In this document: positions 4,470 through 62,342 of the stretch, piece by piece
Position numbering within the stretch: position 1 is the stretch's first letter
Layout: each line of letters starts with the position of its first letter
IMG/VR virus record: IMGVR_UViG_3300025073_000880
Reading direction: 5' to 3' (one strand)
Source: a virus
Taxonomy: Duplodnaviria > Heunggongvirae > Uroviricota > Caudoviricetes
Length of the DNA: 64,000 bases
The notes under the pieces: generated by a model
Database searches by the model: none
The model's input: only the letters and a program-made list of their open reading frames with translations
What the model was told of the DNA's origin: nothing
Position numbers and translations under genes: made by a program

Positions 4470-5147
4470 TTATCTTTCTTTATGATAAAAATGAAATGTT
4501 GGATTATCAGAATGAATTATACGAATTTTATTATCACTACCACCTATCTCAACAAGTTTCCAATCCTCAGCCTCTCCTCTACCAATAATTTCTAAAAGCT
4601 CCCAATCAAACGTAATTTTCCTTCTCGGTCTTGGCCTGAAATAACCATATTTATCAAAAAGCTCTTTTTTAATCATAAAGCTTCCAATGTCACATTGCTG
4701 AGGTTGCAATCTACATTTTAACCTGTGTCTGTAATCTGGATTTTTAACTCCAATAAATAAAAGGTCAGTCCCTATCATTGTGGCTCCAGGATAAGCCAAT
4801 GCCTCATCTGCCAACAGCTGTAAATGATTAGCCTCCCAAAAATTATCATCATCTAAAAAACAAATCCACTCGTTATTAAACTCCCTATATCTATCTTTTA
4901 AATACCCAAAAGATAACATTGCCCCAACATTTCTTGAAAAACCCCCATAATAATGAGTCCTAACGCCAAGGTCTATCCAATGTCTGCGAGGGTCAAGGCA
5001 TAACCCAGCTAACGTTGTTCTTAGCTCAGGATTATTGTCATTAATAATTAAATGTTCCCAATTTTGAAACGTTTGCTCGTCTAATGATTTTATTACGTTC
5101 TTCACTCCATCAGGACGCCACCCTGCTGTTACTACGCTTATCTTCAT
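4470..5147 (-). CDS. Glycosyltransferase family 2-like.
   Basis: KISVVTAGWRPDG N-terminus and FLDDDN (DxD) motif. Confidence 0.55.
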   Translation of the reverse strand: MKISVVTAGWRPDGVKNVIKSLDEQTFQNWEHLIINDNNPELRTTLAGLCLDPRRHWIDLGVRTHYYGGFSRNVGAMLSFGYLKDRYREFNNEWICFLDDDNFWEANHLQLLADEALAYPGATMIGTDLLFIGVKNPDYRHRLKCRLQPQQCDIGSFMIKKELFDKYGYFRPRPRRKITFDWELLEIIGRGEAEDWKLVEIGGSDNKIRIIHSDNPTFHFYHKER

Positions 5148-5149
5148 AA

Positions 5150-5647
5150 TTATAGTAGATTTATATGATTCTTAACCGCTATTGCACAATTAAATCTGTC
5201 TATATATACTGGATTAAATCCATAAGGAAAATTTAATTTTTTATCAACATCATGGACAATAAATGCAGAGGTAACAAAGTTGTTTAGTTTGTCTATTATC
5301 GCTTGATTGTGCTTATGTCCGGCATCTATAAAGACCACATCAACAGCATGTTTCCAGTTTTCTTGCATAAAATCTTTCCATGTCAGTTCTGCATTAAGAC
5401 TATATTCTGCTAATAGCTTTTTGGCATAATTTAGTCTATGATTCTTAATGTCATAACCCCATGCCTTATAATTTTTGGTGTCATTTGATTTGACAGCACT
5501 GATGCCGAATAGGGCAGTATATCCCCAACCAACTCCAATCTCTAAATAACTTTTTGCATCTATCGCAACCAAAAGTCCATACATCAAAATAGAAAGTCTT
5601 TCGGTATAAAACGGCTTACCTTTCTCTTTGTTTATGTTAGGTATCAT
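5150..5647 (-). CDS. Class I SAM-dependent O-methyltransferase (CmcI-like).
   Basis: LEIGVGWGYTALFG motif I and FIDAGHKH motif. Confidence 0.55.
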   Translation of the reverse strand: MIPNINKEKGKPFYTERLSILMYGLLVAIDAKSYLEIGVGWGYTALFGISAVKSNDTKNYKAWGYDIKNHRLNYAKKLLAEYSLNAELTWKDFMQENWKHAVDVVFIDAGHKHNQAIIDKLNNFVTSAFIVHDVDKKLNFPYGFNPVYIDRFNCAIAVKNHINLL

Positions 5648-30977: not shown

Positions 30978-31053
30978 TGGAGCCCATGGAAGGACTTGAA
31001 CCAACAACCATTTGATTACAGATCAACTACTCTACCAATTGAGCTACACAGGC
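30978..31053 (-). tRNA. tRNA with an encoded CCA. Anticodon probably UGU (Thr), but the anticodon and T arms are non-canonical.
   Basis: Acceptor GCCUGUG/CAUGGGC; D arm GCUC-AAUUGGUA-GAGU; T loop UUCAAGU. The T stem has two U-U mismatches. The anticodon loop UCUGUAA has C33. Confidence 0.45.
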
Positions 31054-31621: not shown

Positions 31622-32632
31622 TTATGCGTCATAGTCTAAAAGATATTTATTAGAAATAGCCTTAAACGATAACCTCCCACCCCTATATCCAGACTCTACC
31701 TTTGACCTAACAACAACACCCTCACGATCAACCTCTGGATTTAGCATGCTCTTGCCATCAGCATATCTTAACATATCATCAACTGTTTTTGGCAAGATAA
31801 AGTTATCATCAATTACAGGCACAACGTCAAGGTTTAATGCTTCACACAATTGAACAAAATCTATAAAATCCAAAAAACACCCTGATTTTATATTATAAGC
31901 ATTAAAGAAAAATACCTTTTGCCCGGATAGTTTTAATGGATTTTTTTGAATACCCTCGCCTACAAGCTCTCCTTGCAAAGCCATGTTGTCAGGAAGCTTA
32001 TCTGGCAGATTAAGCTCTTTGGCTAATCGCCACTGAGTAACGTCACTCTCCTCTAATTCCAAATTACGACTACAAACACCAAATACTCCATCAAATTTAT
32101 AAAATGTAATGGACGATCCGTCTAATTTTTCTGTGACATAGAACCTCGACAAAACACCGCCCATGTTCTGAATCCTCTCTTCATCTGTTTTTGGGATAAA
32201 ATTTGGGAATGACCCTTTTACCTTACCCGATAAATAAGCGGGGATTGGCATTTCATACTTTATCACCCCAAGCAAATCAGACACTTCCAAGCCCTCCACC
32301 ATACCCTCTATACCTACACCCAACAAAGAGATAGGCATTACAAGCCCTTGGCTTATTGTGTCTTTCAATTTTACTGTTTTTAACCGTATACCTTCGACCT
32401 CAACACCATCAACCAACATCTTCTTCGGCTTTGATCCTCTTAACAAAAACTCATACTCAGGCTTTATTGGCAAAAACGAATCAATCTCATAATATAAAAC
32501 TAAATCACCGACATTAAACTCATCTTTTTTAACAATGACCCACCAATCGTTTATCCTAACAGATTCAATGAAATCAGCTTTTGGGATAACCCTTTTTTCT
32601 CGAACCCTTTGTATTGTTACCAATTTTCTCAT
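31622..32632 (-). CDS. ATP-dependent RNA ligase (Rnl2/DraRnl-like nucleotidyltransferase).
   Basis: Motif I TEKLDGSS (KxDG); EGVVVR (motif IV); LSFKAI (motif V). Confidence 0.6.
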   Translation of the reverse strand: MRKLVTIQRVREKRVIPKADFIESVRINDWWVIVKKDEFNVGDLVLYYEIDSFLPIKPEYEFLLRGSKPKKMLVDGVEVEGIRLKTVKLKDTISQGLVMPISLLGVGIEGMVEGLEVSDLLGVIKYEMPIPAYLSGKVKGSFPNFIPKTDEERIQNMGGVLSRFYVTEKLDGSSITFYKFDGVFGVCSRNLELEESDVTQWRLAKELNLPDKLPDNMALQGELVGEGIQKNPLKLSGQKVFFFNAYNIKSGCFLDFIDFVQLCEALNLDVVPVIDDNFILPKTVDDMLRYADGKSMLNPEVDREGVVVRSKVESGYRGGRLSFKAISNKYLLDYDA

Positions 32633-45453: not shown

Positions 45454-46935
45454 CTAAATAATAATTCGTTTATACCTGTCGGAGTTAATCGTATTCATCA
45501 TAACCTCATAAGGCGTTTTATTCTCAACTGCCATCTTGAATATTACAGGAGAAAAGCCGGAAACCATTGACACGCCTCGCTCACTCTCTTTGACTGGCAA
45601 ATTCTCTCCGCTTGCATTTACATTCCAAAACACTAGATTCGGTCTGACATACCCCAGCTGGGAATACTTTTGTTCAATAACCTCAAAATTAGTTTGGTCG
45701 CCATAAGTAGCCTGGTCAAACTCCATGTCTGAAATAATGTAAATCGTGTCTGGCATTTCATCTTCCGGCGTGCTGTTCTGAACGGCAGTTGTTAAAATTA
45801 AATCAAACACAGCCTGAACGTTGGTGTTAGCTACGTCCCCAAGCTGAATGCTATTCATTTTATCCCTCAAATTTGCACCTTGAACCTTATGTAATTTCGG
45901 CTGTCCTGAAAATGAAATAAAGTAATTCTGGAATTGTCCTTTATTTCTCTCAGCAAAATATAGTGCCAACGAAACAGATACAGATATTGGGACGCCAGTC
46001 ATCGATCCTGATGTGTCAGCTACTACTAAGGCATTTTTCCCTTGTGTATAATCAGGTAGCTGATTCCATAAGGCTTCAAGCGTTTTAGAATAATCCGCCC
46101 AAACGGAATTGTATATTTGATATGGATATAATGTCCCTGCATTTATCTTCACCTCACCTTTTTCTGCCTTTTCAATAAACTTTTCATACCTCTTCTCATC
46201 GTGTTTCTTAAAGACATTTTTATAAATTCTTGACGCTTGGCTTGGAACAACAGAATAATTTATATCCGGCCACTTTTTAGCTGACATCTTTTCTTCAACT
46301 GTCGCTATTTTTTTTCTAATAGACCTGATAAGTTTTCTATAAGCCATTTCATCTATCCCTAACCCATTAGCCATAAATCTTGCTTTTTTTCTGGTATTAA
46401 GGCTTGAAGCGTTAATGGTTGGAAGCCATTTAGCCAGCAGGGACGGTTTATCCTCCTTTTGGTCTTTTTCCAGTTGGCTTTTAATCAACAAGAAACATTT
46501 TTTATTATCAAAAAATAAATCATCAAAGCGACCATACTCTTGGACAAAATCTACAATCTTTTCAAATATAGAAGGTTCATTTTCACCTAACCATTGCAGA
46601 CAAACCCTAAATAAGGCTCGCTCACCCTGGCCTCCCCTTATATCTCTAAGATAAAACAAAACCTTAATTGCCTTTTCTCTATCTTCCGAAAACGCTCGTT
46701 TGAATAAATCAAGGGCTTTTTTAGGCTCACCCCTCATCGCTCCAGCCTGAGCATAAAAATCTAAAAGAGCCGACTGCGTTCGAGTAAAAGTCTTTGCCTC
46801 GTTTTTTGTTCTCCCATAGGACGTGTTTACATACATCCCATTGATTAAAGAATTCCCACTTGATTTCTTTGCTCCTTCAGGAGCTTTCATCTCATTGATG
46901 TTTTTCATATTTTTGAAACAAGACGCTTTTAACAC
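45454..46935 (-). CDS. rsr: Ro60/Rsr ortholog (TROVE domain plus vWA domain).
   Basis: YLRDIRGGQGER TROVE region and VVADTSGSMTG MIDAS motif. 493 aa. Confidence 0.65.
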   Translation of the reverse strand: MLKASCFKNMKNINEMKAPEGAKKSSGNSLINGMYVNTSYGRTKNEAKTFTRTQSALLDFYAQAGAMRGEPKKALDLFKRAFSEDREKAIKVLFYLRDIRGGQGERALFRVCLQWLGENEPSIFEKIVDFVQEYGRFDDLFFDNKKCFLLIKSQLEKDQKEDKPSLLAKWLPTINASSLNTRKKARFMANGLGIDEMAYRKLIRSIRKKIATVEEKMSAKKWPDINYSVVPSQASRIYKNVFKKHDEKRYEKFIEKAEKGEVKINAGTLYPYQIYNSVWADYSKTLEALWNQLPDYTQGKNALVVADTSGSMTGVPISVSVSLALYFAERNKGQFQNYFISFSGQPKLHKVQGANLRDKMNSIQLGDVANTNVQAVFDLILTTAVQNSTPEDEMPDTIYIISDMEFDQATYGDQTNFEVIEQKYSQLGYVRPNLVFWNVNASGENLPVKESERGVSMVSGFSPVIFKMAVENKTPYEVMMNTINSDRYKRIII

Positions 46936-46960
46936 TATAGATTAACAGTCTATTGTTTTA

Positions 46961-47240
46961 TTTATATTGCTGTTAGCGTCTTCAATTATTTTATATAACA
47001 AGACCCATTTTCTTTGAAAATAGAATTTCAATTTAATTGCTGTTAGGGTCTTAATGAATTTTAAATGTGCGAGCGAGTGGGGATTGAACCCACGACCAAC
47101 GGCCTGAATGCTTTTTAGTTGCTGTTAGTGTCTTACAAGACACATTTTTACGTTGCTCTACCACTGAGCTATCGCTCGCATAACACGACGCATTTTGACA
47201 AAGTAAGAATTTGTTTTGCTGTATTGCTGTTAGCGTCGTA
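46961..47240 (-). repeat. Four copies of the minus-strand motif GACNC-UAACAGCAA, each with a covarying partner stem. One copy is inside the tRNA-like RNA. Y-RNA-like module array.
   Basis: Copies at 46964, 47037, 47122 and 47226 (plus strand TTGCTGTTAGNGTC). Partner pentamers covary: GACGC/GCGTC, GACCC/GGGTC, GACAC/GUGUC, GACGC/GCGTC. Confidence 0.55.
47069..47180 (-). ncRNA. tRNA-like Y-RNA candidate (YrlA-like). It has canonical acceptor, D and T arms, but ~50 nt replace the anticodon loop.
   Basis: Acceptor CGAGCGA/UCGCUCG with G-1:C73; D arm GCUC-AGUGGUA-GAGC; T arm GUGGG-UUCAAUC-CCCAC. The anticodon-position stem (C)AACG/CGUU(G) encloses a hairpin GUGUC-UUGUAA-GACAC followed by UAACAGCAA. 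Lies between rsr and rtcB. Confidence 0.5.
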
Positions 47241-47296
47241 ATACAATTAACTTATTTACTTGACGATTACTTGACAATTAGATATAGGAATATTTT

Positions 47297-49441
47297 TTAA
47301 CCCTTGATTACCGCTAATGGATTTAATTCCACAAGTATTTCAACCAAATCTGCCTGGTTTTGCATAACTTCATCTATTGGCTTATATGCGCCAGGGGCTT
47401 CCTCCAAATCATCTTTGTTCCTCATCCCGTGAATTATCCCTTTGTCATCCATTATTTTCTTTTGTTCATCAAAGTCTAACTGTTCACACGCCGCCTTTCG
47501 CCCTAGCCTTCTCCCTGCTCCATGTGAACATGATTCAAACGATTCTTTATTTCCAAGACCTTTGACGATATATGACTTTGTTCCCATTGAACCAGGAATT
47601 ATTCCGATTGTTCCTTCTCTTGCTAAGGTCGCACCCTTTCTGTGAACCCAGACGTTCTGTCCAAAATGATTTTCTTGTGTGGCGTAATTATGAGCAATGT
47701 TAATAAGTCCACTATTGTCGCCATTTTCATTTTTAACTATAAAATTAGTTATTTCAAAAGCAGTCTTGTAATCCATCTCCCTTAAAAAACAGCCAACAAT
47801 TCTATCCATCATCAATTTTCTATTTGCCAAGGCGAACTCTACACAATACTGCATTTCTCCGATATATGCCTGCCCCTCATCACTATCAACTGGTAAAAAT
47901 GCCAGCTGCCATTCTTTCGGGACTGAACTGTGCCATTTATCGTTTAATTCAACAGCTAATTTGTTGTAATAGTCAGCCACCTGCTTGCCTAGGTTTCGGC
48001 TACCACTATGTATCATTATCCAGATATGCCCATCAGATCCTTTTTGTATTTCAATAAAGTGGTTACCACCGCCAAGAGTTCCTATTTGTTTTAGAGCAGA
48101 GTTATATTGCTCTTTGATTATTGGTTTCCCAACATCATAGTTTGTGGGCATTAAATCCTCGTTTTGTTTTTCTTTATGATGATTAAATCCAACTGGTATT
48201 TGCTTTCTTGTCTCTCCCATTATTTTTTTTATGGTTTCAGTCTCAATTTCAGTTAGAGATGTTTTGACCGCACACATTCCGCAGTTCCCTGTAATAAATA
48301 TTTTATTGTTTCTTCTGGCGATAAAATAACCAGTCTCAACTACAAAACAATACTTCTTTCCATCTTTTATCTTTATTTTTTTAGGTTTACTAAATCCAAC
48401 ATAATTATTTTGCGTTTGATATACATGATACCAATCTTTCCAGTTCTTTTGTTTACTCCTAATAATACCTATACCCGCCCTTATCCCATTTAGGGCACAT
48501 ATATATTGGATAGCATCTGCGTTTATTTTATTTGTCGTAGCATATGTTTTGTGATGTCTTTTTTTGTCTATTGAGCCGTCCCAATATAAATATTCATCAA
48601 AAACAACCTTTGCCTGATTTTGGTTACAGTTATACAAATCGGTTAAATCTTTATCGCAAACCCAATCTACTTTAAAACTGATTGATTCTGTCCCATCTTT
48701 ATGAAAATATTCTTTAAAAAAAACATTAGACTTTTTTAATAAAAATTTACATCTCTCTATCTTTCTTCTTTTCTTGAAGTGCATTTCAATAGTGGTATGC
48801 TTGTTTGATTTATTTCTTATATGTCCATCAGCCGACGCCATAACTCTAATAGCTAGTTGCTCATCAGATAATTTTATGCCAGATTCACGCGTAGGGAAAG
48901 TAGTTCTAATGGAATAATAATCTTGTTTTTTACATTTCAACAACATTTCTCTAAAATCCTTGCAAAAATAAGTATAATCATTTTTCTTCCTGCCATAGCC
49001 TTTATAAACCAACATTCTATGTTCATCGCTTAAAACATGGTCTAATCCATATTTATTTTTATATTCAGTAAAATTTTCACAAGGCTTAACGATATATAAT
49101 AACGGTTTACTGAAAAAAGATGTTTCTTTATAATTATCCCAAACTAAAACGTCTTCGTTGTTATATTTATCAATAGTTATCCATCCGTTTTTAGTTAAAA
49201 CTTCGGTTTCTTTATCCACTGCCCCGATATCTACACCCACAGCGTTTGGAATTATTACGCCTTTGGTCGCCAATACACCACCGATAGGCATACCGTAACC
49301 AACATGGCTGTCAGGCATGATAGCGATGTGTTTAAATGCAAATGGAAGATTCGCAAGATTCTTGGCTTGTGCTAATGCTTCATCCTCAATGTCCTTGAGC
49401 CACATCTTTATTGGTATTTTTTCGGTTGCAACAACTTCCAT
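47297..49441 (-). CDS. rtcB: RtcB RNA 3'-phosphate ligase interrupted by an intein.
   Basis: IMPDSHVGYG, GGGNHFIEIQ and SCSHGAGRR motifs. About 313 aa are inserted between VGVDIG and CGMCAV. Confidence 0.8.
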   Translation of the reverse strand: MEVVATEKIPIKMWLKDIEDEALAQAKNLANLPFAFKHIAIMPDSHVGYGMPIGGVLATKGVIIPNAVGVDIGAVDKETEVLTKNGWITIDKYNNEDVLVWDNYKETSFFSKPLLYIVKPCENFTEYKNKYGLDHVLSDEHRMLVYKGYGRKKNDYTYFCKDFREMLLKCKKQDYYSIRTTFPTRESGIKLSDEQLAIRVMASADGHIRNKSNKHTTIEMHFKKRRKIERCKFLLKKSNVFFKEYFHKDGTESISFKVDWVCDKDLTDLYNCNQNQAKVVFDEYLYWDGSIDKKRHHKTYATTNKINADAIQYICALNGIRAGIGIIRSKQKNWKDWYHVYQTQNNYVGFSKPKKIKIKDGKKYCFVVETGYFIARRNNKIFITGNCGMCAVKTSLTEIETETIKKIMGETRKQIPVGFNHHKEKQNEDLMPTNYDVGKPIIKEQYNSALKQIGTLGGGNHFIEIQKGSDGHIWIMIHSGSRNLGKQVADYYNKLAVELNDKWHSSVPKEWQLAFLPVDSDEGQAYIGEMQYCVEFALANRKLMMDRIVGCFLREMDYKTAFEITNFIVKNENGDNSGLINIAHNYATQENHFGQNVWVHRKGATLAREGTIGIIPGSMGTKSYIVKGLGNKESFESCSHGAGRRLGRKAACEQLDFDEQKKIMDDKGIIHGMRNKDDLEEAPGAYKPIDEVMQNQADLVEILVELNPLAVIKG
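48284..49222 (-). mobile_element. Intein (about aa 74-386 of RtcB) with a LAGLIDADG endonuclease domain.
   Basis: Begins AVDKETEVLTKNGWITI (block A-like, Ala1). Ends ...KIFITGN followed by Cys+1. Internal LAIRVMASADGHI and YLYWDGSIDKK motifs. The exteins total ~401 aa, the normal RtcB size. Confidence 0.6.
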
Positions 49442-49453
49442 ACGTTTATTTTA

Positions 49454-50320
49454 TTATTTAACATTTAGAAACGGCAACGCTGAGTTCGGCATCATATAAG
49501 TCGGCAGTTTTCCATCCCACTTCTCCACGGCTTTTAAATCAACATACGATTGACCGCCTTGTTGAGTAATCGCTTGTGCTTGGATTTTAATAGCTTCGGC
49601 TTCGGCTTTAGCTTGTTCAATTCTTTGCTCGGCTTCAAATTTAACTTGCTCTAATTTGTTTTTAGCCGCCAAAGCGTTCTGTTCAGCAGTAACCTTCTGT
49701 TCGATCGCCGAATTGAAACTGTCAGAAAAATCAAAATTAACAATGGAAAGCTCATCAACAATAATGTATTCCTCTGCCAGTCTAAGTTTCAGGTTTTCTT
49801 TTGCCACATTTTTCACTTGCTCACGCTTTGTTATAAGCTCATCAGCCGTAAATTGAGCAGTCGCCGCCTTTAATGCTTCTTGAATCGCAGGATCAATTAT
49901 CCTTGCCTTATAATCTTTACCAATGTTTTGGAATAATTTATTAACATTCCCAGCGTCAAGGTGATAATTAAGAGCAATCGTAGAACTGACTGTCTGCAAA
50001 TCCTTACTCGCCGCCGCTACATCAACCTCATCTTTTTGTGTCTTGACATCAAACTTTTTAACATCCCTTGAAATTGGCGTAATCCAATGAATGCCCTCAC
50101 CTAAAATTCTGTCTTCAACCGCTCCCCAATGAGTAATAACTCCACGCTCGCCAGCTGAAATCATTACAACTGGATTTAGAACAAGGAATAAAATTAAACA
50201 AACAAATCCAATTACTAGTCCAATAAATATTTTCATACTATTTTTTCTTTTTATTATTGAATAAAAGTCTATAAACCCCAGCCCCCGCAAGACCGACCAC
50301 TGCAAGCAGGGCAATCTCAA
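49454..50320 (-). CDS. SPFH (band-7/stomatin/HflKC-like) domain membrane protein.
   Basis: N-terminal TM segment, then ISAGERGVITHWGAV...EGIHWITPI SPFH core and a coiled-coil C-terminus. Confidence 0.6.
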   Translation of the reverse strand: MRLPCLQWSVLRGLGFIDFYSIIKRKNSMKIFIGLVIGFVCLILFLVLNPVVMISAGERGVITHWGAVEDRILGEGIHWITPISRDVKKFDVKTQKDEVDVAAASKDLQTVSSTIALNYHLDAGNVNKLFQNIGKDYKARIIDPAIQEALKAATAQFTADELITKREQVKNVAKENLKLRLAEEYIIVDELSIVNFDFSDSFNSAIEQKVTAEQNALAAKNKLEQVKFEAEQRIEQAKAEAEAIKIQAQAITQQGGQSYVDLKAVEKWDGKLPTYMMPNSALPFLNVK

Positions 50321-62234: not shown

Positions 62235-62306
62235 GTACTCAGAACAGGGTTTGAACCTGCGACCAAAGAGGTATAAACTCTCCGCTCTACCGCTGAGCTA
62301 TCTGAG
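62235..62306 (-). tRNA. tRNA-Ile, anticodon UAU (reads AUA). No CCA is encoded.
   Basis: Acceptor ACUCAGA/UCUGAGU; D arm GCUC-AGCGGUA-GAGC; anticodon arm GAGAG-UUUAUAC-CUCUU; T arm GCAGG-UUCAAAC-CCUGU. Confidence 0.7.
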
Positions 62307-62342
62307 TAAAACCGACATATTATGAAACATTAACCCCCAATG

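Follow-up and report, generated by a model that had tools for sequence, protein, structure and literature searches.

In a 64,000-nucleotide (nt) stretch of viral DNA from a metagenome (IMG/VR record IMGVR_UViG_3300025073_000880; the whole stretch is called the window here), we found a gene for a Ro60-fold protein preceded, on the same strand, by four small structured RNAs that share one helix-and-motif module. We think it likely that protein and RNAs represent a new Ro60-like/Y-RNA-like ribonucleoprotein family, in which the four upstream RNAs would be the protein's Y-RNA-like partners. The particle probably has a role in the surveillance or repair of tRNAs and other RNAs. Ro60/Y-RNA particles occur in animals, some bacteria and a few phages. 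The window is phage DNA, its genes including those for portal, large terminase and primase/helicase. This phage is known only from metagenomes, and a megablast search of the 4-kb region around the gene and its RNAs against GenBank phages gave no match. The elements at issue, in order of transcription, are as follows.

47183 to 47239, minus strand: simple RNA unit, first transcribed (helix ACGACGC/GCGUCGU plus UAACAGCAAU; 47.7 bits, E = 2e-9 with R1, a covariance model of the simple unit).
47069 to 47179, minus strand: tRNA-like RNA of about 111 nt (Rfam tRNA, 47.6 bits, with a 49-nt insertion).
47119 to 47143, minus strand: the shared module inside the tRNA-like RNA, GUGUC-UUGUAA-GACAC and then UAACAGCAA (read in the sequence; the helix covaries in homologues, columns 45 to 51 with 57 to 63).
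46998 to 47052, minus strand: simple RNA unit, third transcribed (helix AAGACCC/GGGUCUU plus UAACAGCAAU; R1, 55.4 bits).
46918 to 46982, minus strand: simple RNA unit, fourth transcribed (helix AAGACGC/GCGUCUU plus UAACAGCAAU; R1, 58.0 bits, E = 5e-12, this unit having belonged to the R1 training set).
45454 to 46908, minus strand: gene for a DUF2828+DUF7788 protein of 484 amino acids, with the Ro60 fold and presumed to be the partner of the RNAs.

The RNAs lie in a 388-nt spacer, the order of transcription on the minus strand being Band_7 gene, rtcB, spacer and protein gene. A preliminary description of this DNA had reported four copies of the motif GACNC-UAACAGCAA; we confirmed all four, all in the spacer, where they are common to three stem-loops of about 55 to 65 nt and the tRNA-like RNA. 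The 14-nt pattern GACNCTAACAGCAA occurs exactly four times in the window (46967-46980, 47037-47050, 47119-47132 and 47224-47237). With up to two mismatches there were six matches, against a shuffle mean of 0.76, and 0 of 100 shuffles equaled the observed count; TAACAGCAA occurs five times in the window, four of them in the spacer. In the simple units a 7-bp helix joins the ends, UAACAGCAAU comes right after the 5′ strand, the loop is AU-rich and a G follows the 3′ strand. The fourth unit has an internal hairpin within its AU-rich loop and ends 10 nt before the start codon. The minimum-free-energy fold of the whole spacer, taken as 336 nt, gave all four elements (z = −4.3; 0 of 100 shuffles).

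We looked across 135 loci to determine how far these RNAs are conserved: 80 viral loci chosen by the protein alone (40 to 69% identity), plus 55 loci from bacterial and archaeal genomes (34 to 73% protein identity). In most loci a simple scan detected the motif next to the gene, together with a matching strand downstream, and the helices had many different sequences. At a threshold of E ≤ 0.01, R1, which was built from 49 units, gave 153 matches in the viral set, spread over 74 of its 80 loci, and 38 in the 55 bacterial and archaeal loci. All 191 matches were on the gene's strand, mostly just upstream or downstream of the gene, and in the window R1 matched spacer elements only. The median unit length was 56 nt. 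Over 65 distinct units, part of them selected for inner-stem pairing, the 7-bp helix was paired in 98.9% of cells, 114 of which were double changes; 0 of 500 shuffles reached the observed pairing, and slid registers dropped to 30 to 49% paired. The two outer pairs, which were not used in selecting units, covary as well (AU 37, UA 21 and GC 2 at one; AU 54 and CG 10 at the other), in the combinations AA/UU, UA/UA, AC/GU and GA/UC. In every unit NCUAACAGCAA comes after the 5′ strand, and the 65 units show no variation in ACAGCA. The earlier claim that each motif copy has a downstream partner covarying with N was thus borne out, since 7-bp helices close the three stand-alone units and covary over more than 60 homologous units.

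Among isolated phages, R1 found units beside the gene in Staphylococcus 6ec, Listeria P100 and, weakly, mycobacteriophage Wyatt2, and a motif search found them in the Felix O1-like coliphage HY02 and in Campylobacter CP30A. HY02 (Felixounavirus; locus L143, 4733-5420) carries four units with the 5′ sequence CAGAAGACC, interleaved with about 20 tRNA genes. R1 found one of these four, weakly, and the last of them bears a T arm, a closed acceptor and a D arm. Neither Rfam 15 nor the searchable literature, under DUF2828, the motif or phage Y RNAs, yielded a description of the DUF2828-linked RNAs.

The tRNA-like RNA combines D and T arms and an elbow with an acceptor stem of 7 bp plus G-1:C73, and the closed-hairpin module replaces the anticodon arm. 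The Rfam tRNA model (RF00005) matched 47069-47178 at 47.6 bits (E = 5.8e-9; cutoff, 29). Acceptor, D and T arms were all present, and a 49-nt insertion stood in place of an anticodon stem with a 7-nt loop, in agreement with the tRNA mimic bearing an insertion of about 50 nt that had been described before. At least 21 non-redundant RNAs have this form. In an alignment of 17 of them, RNAalifold recovered the acceptor, D, module and T helices, with compensatory changes in 21 of the 24 predicted pairs and in all arms. Conservation of G-1:C73 and of the D and T loops had been proposed as a check. Thirteen of the 17 RNAs have position −1 paired with the discriminator. The nucleotides that build the tRNA elbow do not vary; U8, A14, G18, A21, G53, U54, C56, A58 and C61 are invariant.

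Across the loci, one design appears in three topologies. Form 1 is the simple unit. Form 2, of about 115 nt, has its elements in the order of the bacterial Y RNA YrlA: the loop of the unit holds a hairpin, a T arm, a closed acceptor hairpin and a D arm (L004, L007, L012, L013, L076, L141 and L143). Form 3 is that of the window, in which both ends of the chain lie in the acceptor stem and it is the module helix that is closed. Because the elements of forms 2 and 3 have the same order around the circle, the two are circular permutations of each other.

In the protein, Pfam recognized DUF2828 and DUF7788, which resembles a von Willebrand factor A (vWA) domain, together with a weak VWA_2 match. 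An AlphaFold2 model built on 43 homologues had a predicted local distance difference test (pLDDT) score of 84 and a predicted template modeling (pTM) score of 0.84. Its fold matches that of Ro60, a HEAT-repeat ring and then a vWA domain, at an identity to Ro60 of about 11 to 14%. The MIDAS (metal ion-dependent adhesion site) residues, D307-x-S309-x-S311, T371 and D403, are invariant in the 43 homologues, and the DTSGS motif is present. A Ro60 fold with no sequence match to TROVE makes this a Ro60-fold protein of a separate sequence family, and on the strength of the model we take the product of 45454-46908 to be a very divergent Ro60-type protein, not an Rsr/TROVE orthologue. The gene had been described as rsr, with TROVE and vWA domains; the Ro60 fold and a vWA domain with an intact MIDAS stand, and DUF2828+DUF7788 takes the place of TROVE. 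The PHROGs label of the protein is "RNA-binding protein" (PHROG 850), and mycobacteriophage annotators already label family members "Ro-like RNA binding protein"; the NCBIfam and PADLOC defense models gave no match. More than 7,900 homologues were found in a protein database search. Homologues also occur in 711 isolated phages, including Felix O1-like phages, Listeria P100, Staphylococcus 6ec and mycobacteriophages.

Several results weigh against reading this pair as a Ro60/Y-RNA system. Pfam gave no match of the protein to TROVE (PF05731) even at E ≤ 10, and searches of solved structures in the PDB by sequence gave none either, whether with the single query or with a 43-homologue profile. The known Ro-binding motifs CGAA, GNCGAA and GGUCCGA are lacking from the minus strand of 46910-47296. 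Some of the helix statistics come from units selected for inner-stem pairing. Only 7 of the 135 loci have RNA-repair genes within 3 kb of the protein gene, so these genes are not core components and a repair role may be clade-specific; RtcB, which had been described as part of the module, adjoins the gene here and in close relatives but was rejected as a core component on this count. Finally, when viral contigs were scanned for the RNA first, with AGACNCTAACAGCAAT, the protein gene was within the fetched stretch at 25 of 72 complete-unit loci; the fetched stretches were short, about 40% of all matches were incomplete and chance-like, and several of the gene-less stretches come from contigs with a DUF2828 gene elsewhere. 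One stretch from a giant-virus bin (L148; IMGVR_UViG_GVMAG-M-3300017963-53_000001) has three tandem complete units at 171-713 on the minus strand, each followed by tRNA-like sequence. It has no DUF2828 gene in the fetched 11 kb and could be mis-binned phage.

Units in stretches where the gene was not found would also suit RNAs that act alone, for example as tRNA-shaped decoys or sponges that draw off host nucleases or tRNA enzymes, next to a protein that is linked to them and does not bind them. The invariant tRNA elbow nucleotides and the interleaving of arrays with phage tRNA genes are consistent with such decoys. We nevertheless consider them unlikely. Conservation is highest in the module, which is shared with simple hairpins that lack tRNA features, and not in the tRNA-like body; this module tracks the protein gene across phyla at 34 to 70% protein identity, and Ro60-fold proteins bind adjacent RNAs (PMC4201824, PMC12135203).

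The position of the last unit raises the question of whether the units are instead cis-acting leader elements of the DUF2828 mRNA, through which the protein or a ribosome-blocking fold would control the translation of its own gene. Candidate starts of the gene are GTG 46935, ATG 46908 and ATG 46890, the last being the public gene call. Alignment of homologues, which have a conserved MKxINE N terminus, makes ATG 46908 the most likely start, in place of GTG 46935, the mechanical open reading frame start used in the preliminary description; the latter overlaps the last RNA unit, and with ATG 46908 there is no overlap. No Shine-Dalgarno sequence was evident. A direct repeat, GTCAAGTAA-TC-GTCAAGTAA, lies between the rtcB stop and the first RNA unit (47256-47275, minus strand) and might be a promoter or processing signal. 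Leader elements would fit a last unit whose end is 10 nt short of the start codon in the window and no more than a few nucleotides from it in L001 and L002, and would fit a spacer in which a sigma-70 scan gave no strong site and no promoter or terminator stood out. Yet in many loci the units lie downstream of the gene (for example, in Staphylococcus 6ec, Wyatt2, L016 and L017), and arrays run to about eight units, are located within tRNA clusters and include fusions to tRNA-like domains, which makes a leader function quite improbable as the explanation of the family. Autoregulation could be an added role of the gene-proximal unit in the ribonucleoprotein that we favor.

The preliminary description had itself raised the possibility that the tRNA-like gene is a conventional intron-containing tRNA that is spliced. 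On that account the 111-nt element would be an ordinary tRNA gene with a short intron, perhaps ligated by RtcB, and the other repeats would be unrelated to it. RtcB is the tRNA-splicing ligase of archaea and eukaryotes, and ARAGORN, when introns were allowed, did call a tRNA-Phe(AAA) with a 31-nt intron. This call forced the intron to 30/31 instead of 37/38 and left the anticodon stem mismatched. Forced calls in 16 homologues varied in intron position (31 to 40), intron length (18 to 52) and isotype (nine of them), and one homologue received no forced call. The supposed intron is the best-conserved part of the RNA, its module also forms stand-alone RNAs alongside, and most loci with the tRNA-like RNA lack RtcB. 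Because ARAGORN without introns made no tRNA call on the window RNA or on any of the 17 aligned examples, and because the forced calls disagree in site, length and isotype, we rejected this explanation, which we regard as very improbable.

Just as improbable is action of the repeats as DNA or as generic hairpins (terminators, repetitive extragenic palindromic [REP]-like repeats, or operator or origin sites), which four similar inverted repeats in 320 bp and one terminator-like match on the opposite strand (47128-47143) might suggest, and which we rejected because the helices have no following U-tract, orientation relative to the gene is fixed in 191 of 191 matches, compensatory changes, G-U included, keep pairing on this strand only, and neither the conserved unpaired 10-nt motif nor the tRNA-like fusion has a DNA-level rationale.

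Three other genes of the phage may bear on what the putative ribonucleoprotein does.

47297 to 49441, minus strand: rtcB, encoding an RtcB RNA ligase with a LAGLIDADG intein (Pfam RtcB, 364 bits in two stretches; LAGLIDADG_3).
49454 to 50236, minus strand: gene for a Band_7/SPFH membrane protein (Pfam Band_7; public gene call), whose link to the module is uncertain.
31622 to 32632, minus strand: gene for a second RNA ligase, ATP dependent and of the DraRnl type (phrog_968, E = 7e-73; TIGR02306, 161.6 bits, above the cutoff of 151).

Both the intein-containing RtcB and the separate ligase had been recognized from the sequence alone, and the matches listed agree with this, as do the intein-containing RtcB models of NCBIfam. 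The intein spans residues 74 to 386 (48284-49222, minus strand; 313 amino acids), just before the metal-binding Cys (GVDIG/A...GN/CGM), and the extein has 401 amino acids. The intein begins with Ala instead of Cys or Ser, and its last residues are Gly-Asn. At four close-relative loci, the window's included, RtcB or a polynucleotide kinase-phosphatase (PNKP) plus RNA ligase adjoins the gene. In the three of these other than the window (67 to 70% identity), the RNA array and the gene are followed directly by RNA-repair genes: an intein-less RtcB in two (L266 and L267; 406 to 420 amino acids, adjoining the DUF2828 gene) and RlaP, PNKP and an RNA ligase in one. Because two alternative repair pathways occupy the same position, the association of repair genes with the module in the closest relatives is meaningful. 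Band_7 is near the DUF2828 gene in two of three close relatives (L266, 12522-13322; L268, 12647-13450); we found no known link of Band_7 to Ro60 systems. Elsewhere on the window's own contig (L138, 967-2583), genes for a Cpn60/GroEL-type chaperonin and a RecA-like protein lie upstream of the methyltransferase-Band_7-RtcB block.

The commonest neighbors of the protein gene were tRNA genes, present within 3 kb at 63 of the 135 loci, and 257 of the 261 such tRNAs were on the gene's strand. The window itself has genes for tRNA-Ile(UAU) (62235-62307, minus strand) and tRNA-Thr(UGU) (30978-31053, minus strand), the latter 570 nt from the second RNA ligase gene. In Listeria P100 (L142), a match to ROOL RNA lies among tRNA genes at 1459-2010 (86 bits, slightly under the cutoff of 99.1; E = 4e-16), with the Y-like units about 650 nt and the DUF2828 gene 1 kb downstream of it. 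In L077, models of a group I intron (41.9 bits; 4674-4897) and of a hepatitis delta virus (HDV)-like ribozyme (33.5 bits; 5588-5644) matched below threshold in the tRNA cluster downstream of a DUF2828 gene.

From these observations we infer how such a particle might work. On the model of Ro60, we predict that the shared module serves as the protein-binding site, to which the 7-bp helix, the single-stranded UAACAGCAAU 3′ of its first strand, the A-rich AAAU before the second strand and the 3′ G would all contribute. The remainder of each RNA (a loop that is AU-rich and variable, or else a domain of tRNA shape) would be an effector that recruits or excludes other factors or controls access to the ring, as in Ro60/Y-RNA particles. 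The RNAs probably share a transcript with rtcB and the protein gene, from which tRNA-processing enzymes would excise them at the tRNA-like element, and the protein would then stabilize them. This route of release is suggested by cotranscription with tRNAs and by the tRNA-shaped member. RtcB seals the 2′,3′-cyclic phosphate and 5′-OH ends that anticodon nucleases leave. With RtcB and a second ligase as neighbors, the locus points to the handling of cleaved tRNAs, and in this phage the particle and the two ligases would most likely serve in the surveillance, repair or controlled decay of tRNAs or other RNAs damaged during infection. The ligase encoded at 31622-32632 is possibly part of the same RNA-repair capacity. 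The preliminary description proposed a role against host anticodon nucleases, which the system might have.

If the ribonucleoprotein reading holds, a very large protein family (DUF2828/PHROG 850) is now tied to a defined and easily recognized family of candidate partner RNAs, and several genetically tractable phage-host systems carry it. The position in tRNA clusters and the RtcB or PNKP-plus-ligase cassettes point to tRNA surveillance or repair against host defenses that cleave tRNAs.

Two known groups of small RNAs invite comparison. Besides tRNA, the best Rfam match in the spacer was to Dicty_Class_I_RNA (RF01414) at 46999-47051 (25.1 bits, E = 0.03). In relatives, this model gave 18.4 and 15.1 bits in L078 and no match in L081, all of these scores being below the cutoff of 41.5. 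Class I RNAs are reported to be unique to Dictyostelia and have a single named partner, an RNA recognition motif (RRM) protein (PMC7919456). Like the phage units (median, 56 nt), they are short (42 to 65 nt), and a short helix joins their ends (PMC7919456). Right after the 5′ strand stands CCUUACAGCAAU, against NCUAACAGCAAU here, with five near-invariant positions kept: in the 11-nt Class I motif CCUUACAGCAA beside the 5′ strand, these are U3, C6, C9, A10 and A11, all found in the phage units. Between the consensus strings CUUACAGCAAUuaAAa and CUAACAGCAAUuaAAa, 15 of 16 positions are the same, and both groups have a variable G-poor loop, a G after the helix (UG in Class I) and clustered genes. 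They differ by a one-nucleotide offset between helix and motif, and Class I RNAs come from eukaryotic nuclear genes with a promoter of their own (DUSE, the Dictyostelium upstream sequence element), whereas the units here are in a phage genome. A profile made from 23 Dictyostelium RNAs picked out the phage units collectively, with 32 of 34 matches on the gene strand and no single match significant. DUF2828 proteins do occur in eukaryotes, plants being the main subject of the domain's literature; in the partial Dictyostelium proteomes of the PMC7919456 supplements, the only match to DUF2828 signature peptides was an unrelated vWA protein. We propose only tentatively, and with more doubt than conviction, that the phage module and the Class I RNAs are the same family. 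If they are, Class I RNAs, whose function has been a puzzle since 2004, would partner a DUF2828-type Ro-like protein in the manner of Y RNAs, and the ribonucleoprotein would be ancient or horizontally transferred across phages, bacteria and amoebae. Homology would make the old question directly testable.

The other comparison is with Ro60 systems themselves. Canonical Ro60 binds Y-like RNAs that lie adjacent to it, both in bacteria and in phage phiLo; such RNAs tether it to polynucleotide phosphorylase (PNPase) in Deinococcus and Salmonella, and the phiLo protein is tethered in this way to the PNPase of the host (PMC4201824, PMC12135203). The window most resembles the Salmonella rsr-yrlBA-rtcBA locus (PMC4201824, PMC7790460): in both, a gene for a Ro60-fold ring plus vWA domain adjoins two or more small RNAs on the same strand, all the RNAs are simple hairpins except one, whose tRNA-like domain has D and T arms, and RtcB is adjacent. 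The arrays here are longer, are phage borne and often lie inside tRNA clusters, and the protein belongs to the DUF2828 family, has about 11 to 14% identity to Rsr/Ro60 and lacks a TROVE match. The tRNA-like RNA lies 160 nt upstream of the Ro60-type gene on the same strand, as close as would be expected of a YrlA. In loci related to the window the elements stand as in YrlA (helix, T arm, closed acceptor, D arm), and closed-acceptor relatives gave partial Rfam YrlA matches of 36 to 40 bits, against a cutoff of 69. The window RNA does not have the T arm, closed acceptor and D arm within a terminal helix; it is circularly permuted, with the acceptor open and the binding helix closed. The suggestion that the window's RNAs are YrlA therefore did not hold, since Rfam YrlA (RF02553) had no match in the window at E ≤ 10 and the recognition module is a helix plus UAACAGCAAU instead of GNCGAA(N)G. 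In a known system, cleavage opens a Y RNA to give a tRNA-like acceptor that is accessible to tRNA-end enzymes; there, cutting a closed loop yields two pieces, whereas the window RNA has the open acceptor from the outset, as a single chain in tRNA order. Thermus phage phiLo (PMC12135203; PDB 9KOP and 9L5Y) has a recognized TROVE protein with Yrl1 and Yrl2 RNAs that carry CGAA; we found no sequence similarity to it in the protein described here, and phiLo is without a tRNA-like partner or a link to RtcB. Phage Ro60 with Y-like RNAs is thus already known, in cases with recognized TROVE proteins and GNCGAA/CGAA-bearing RNAs, and the DUF2828-linked RNAs of the window lack that motif. They would give the Ro fold a second, orthogonal protein/RNA recognition pair and, in form 3, a natural circular permutation of a tRNA-mimicking Y RNA.

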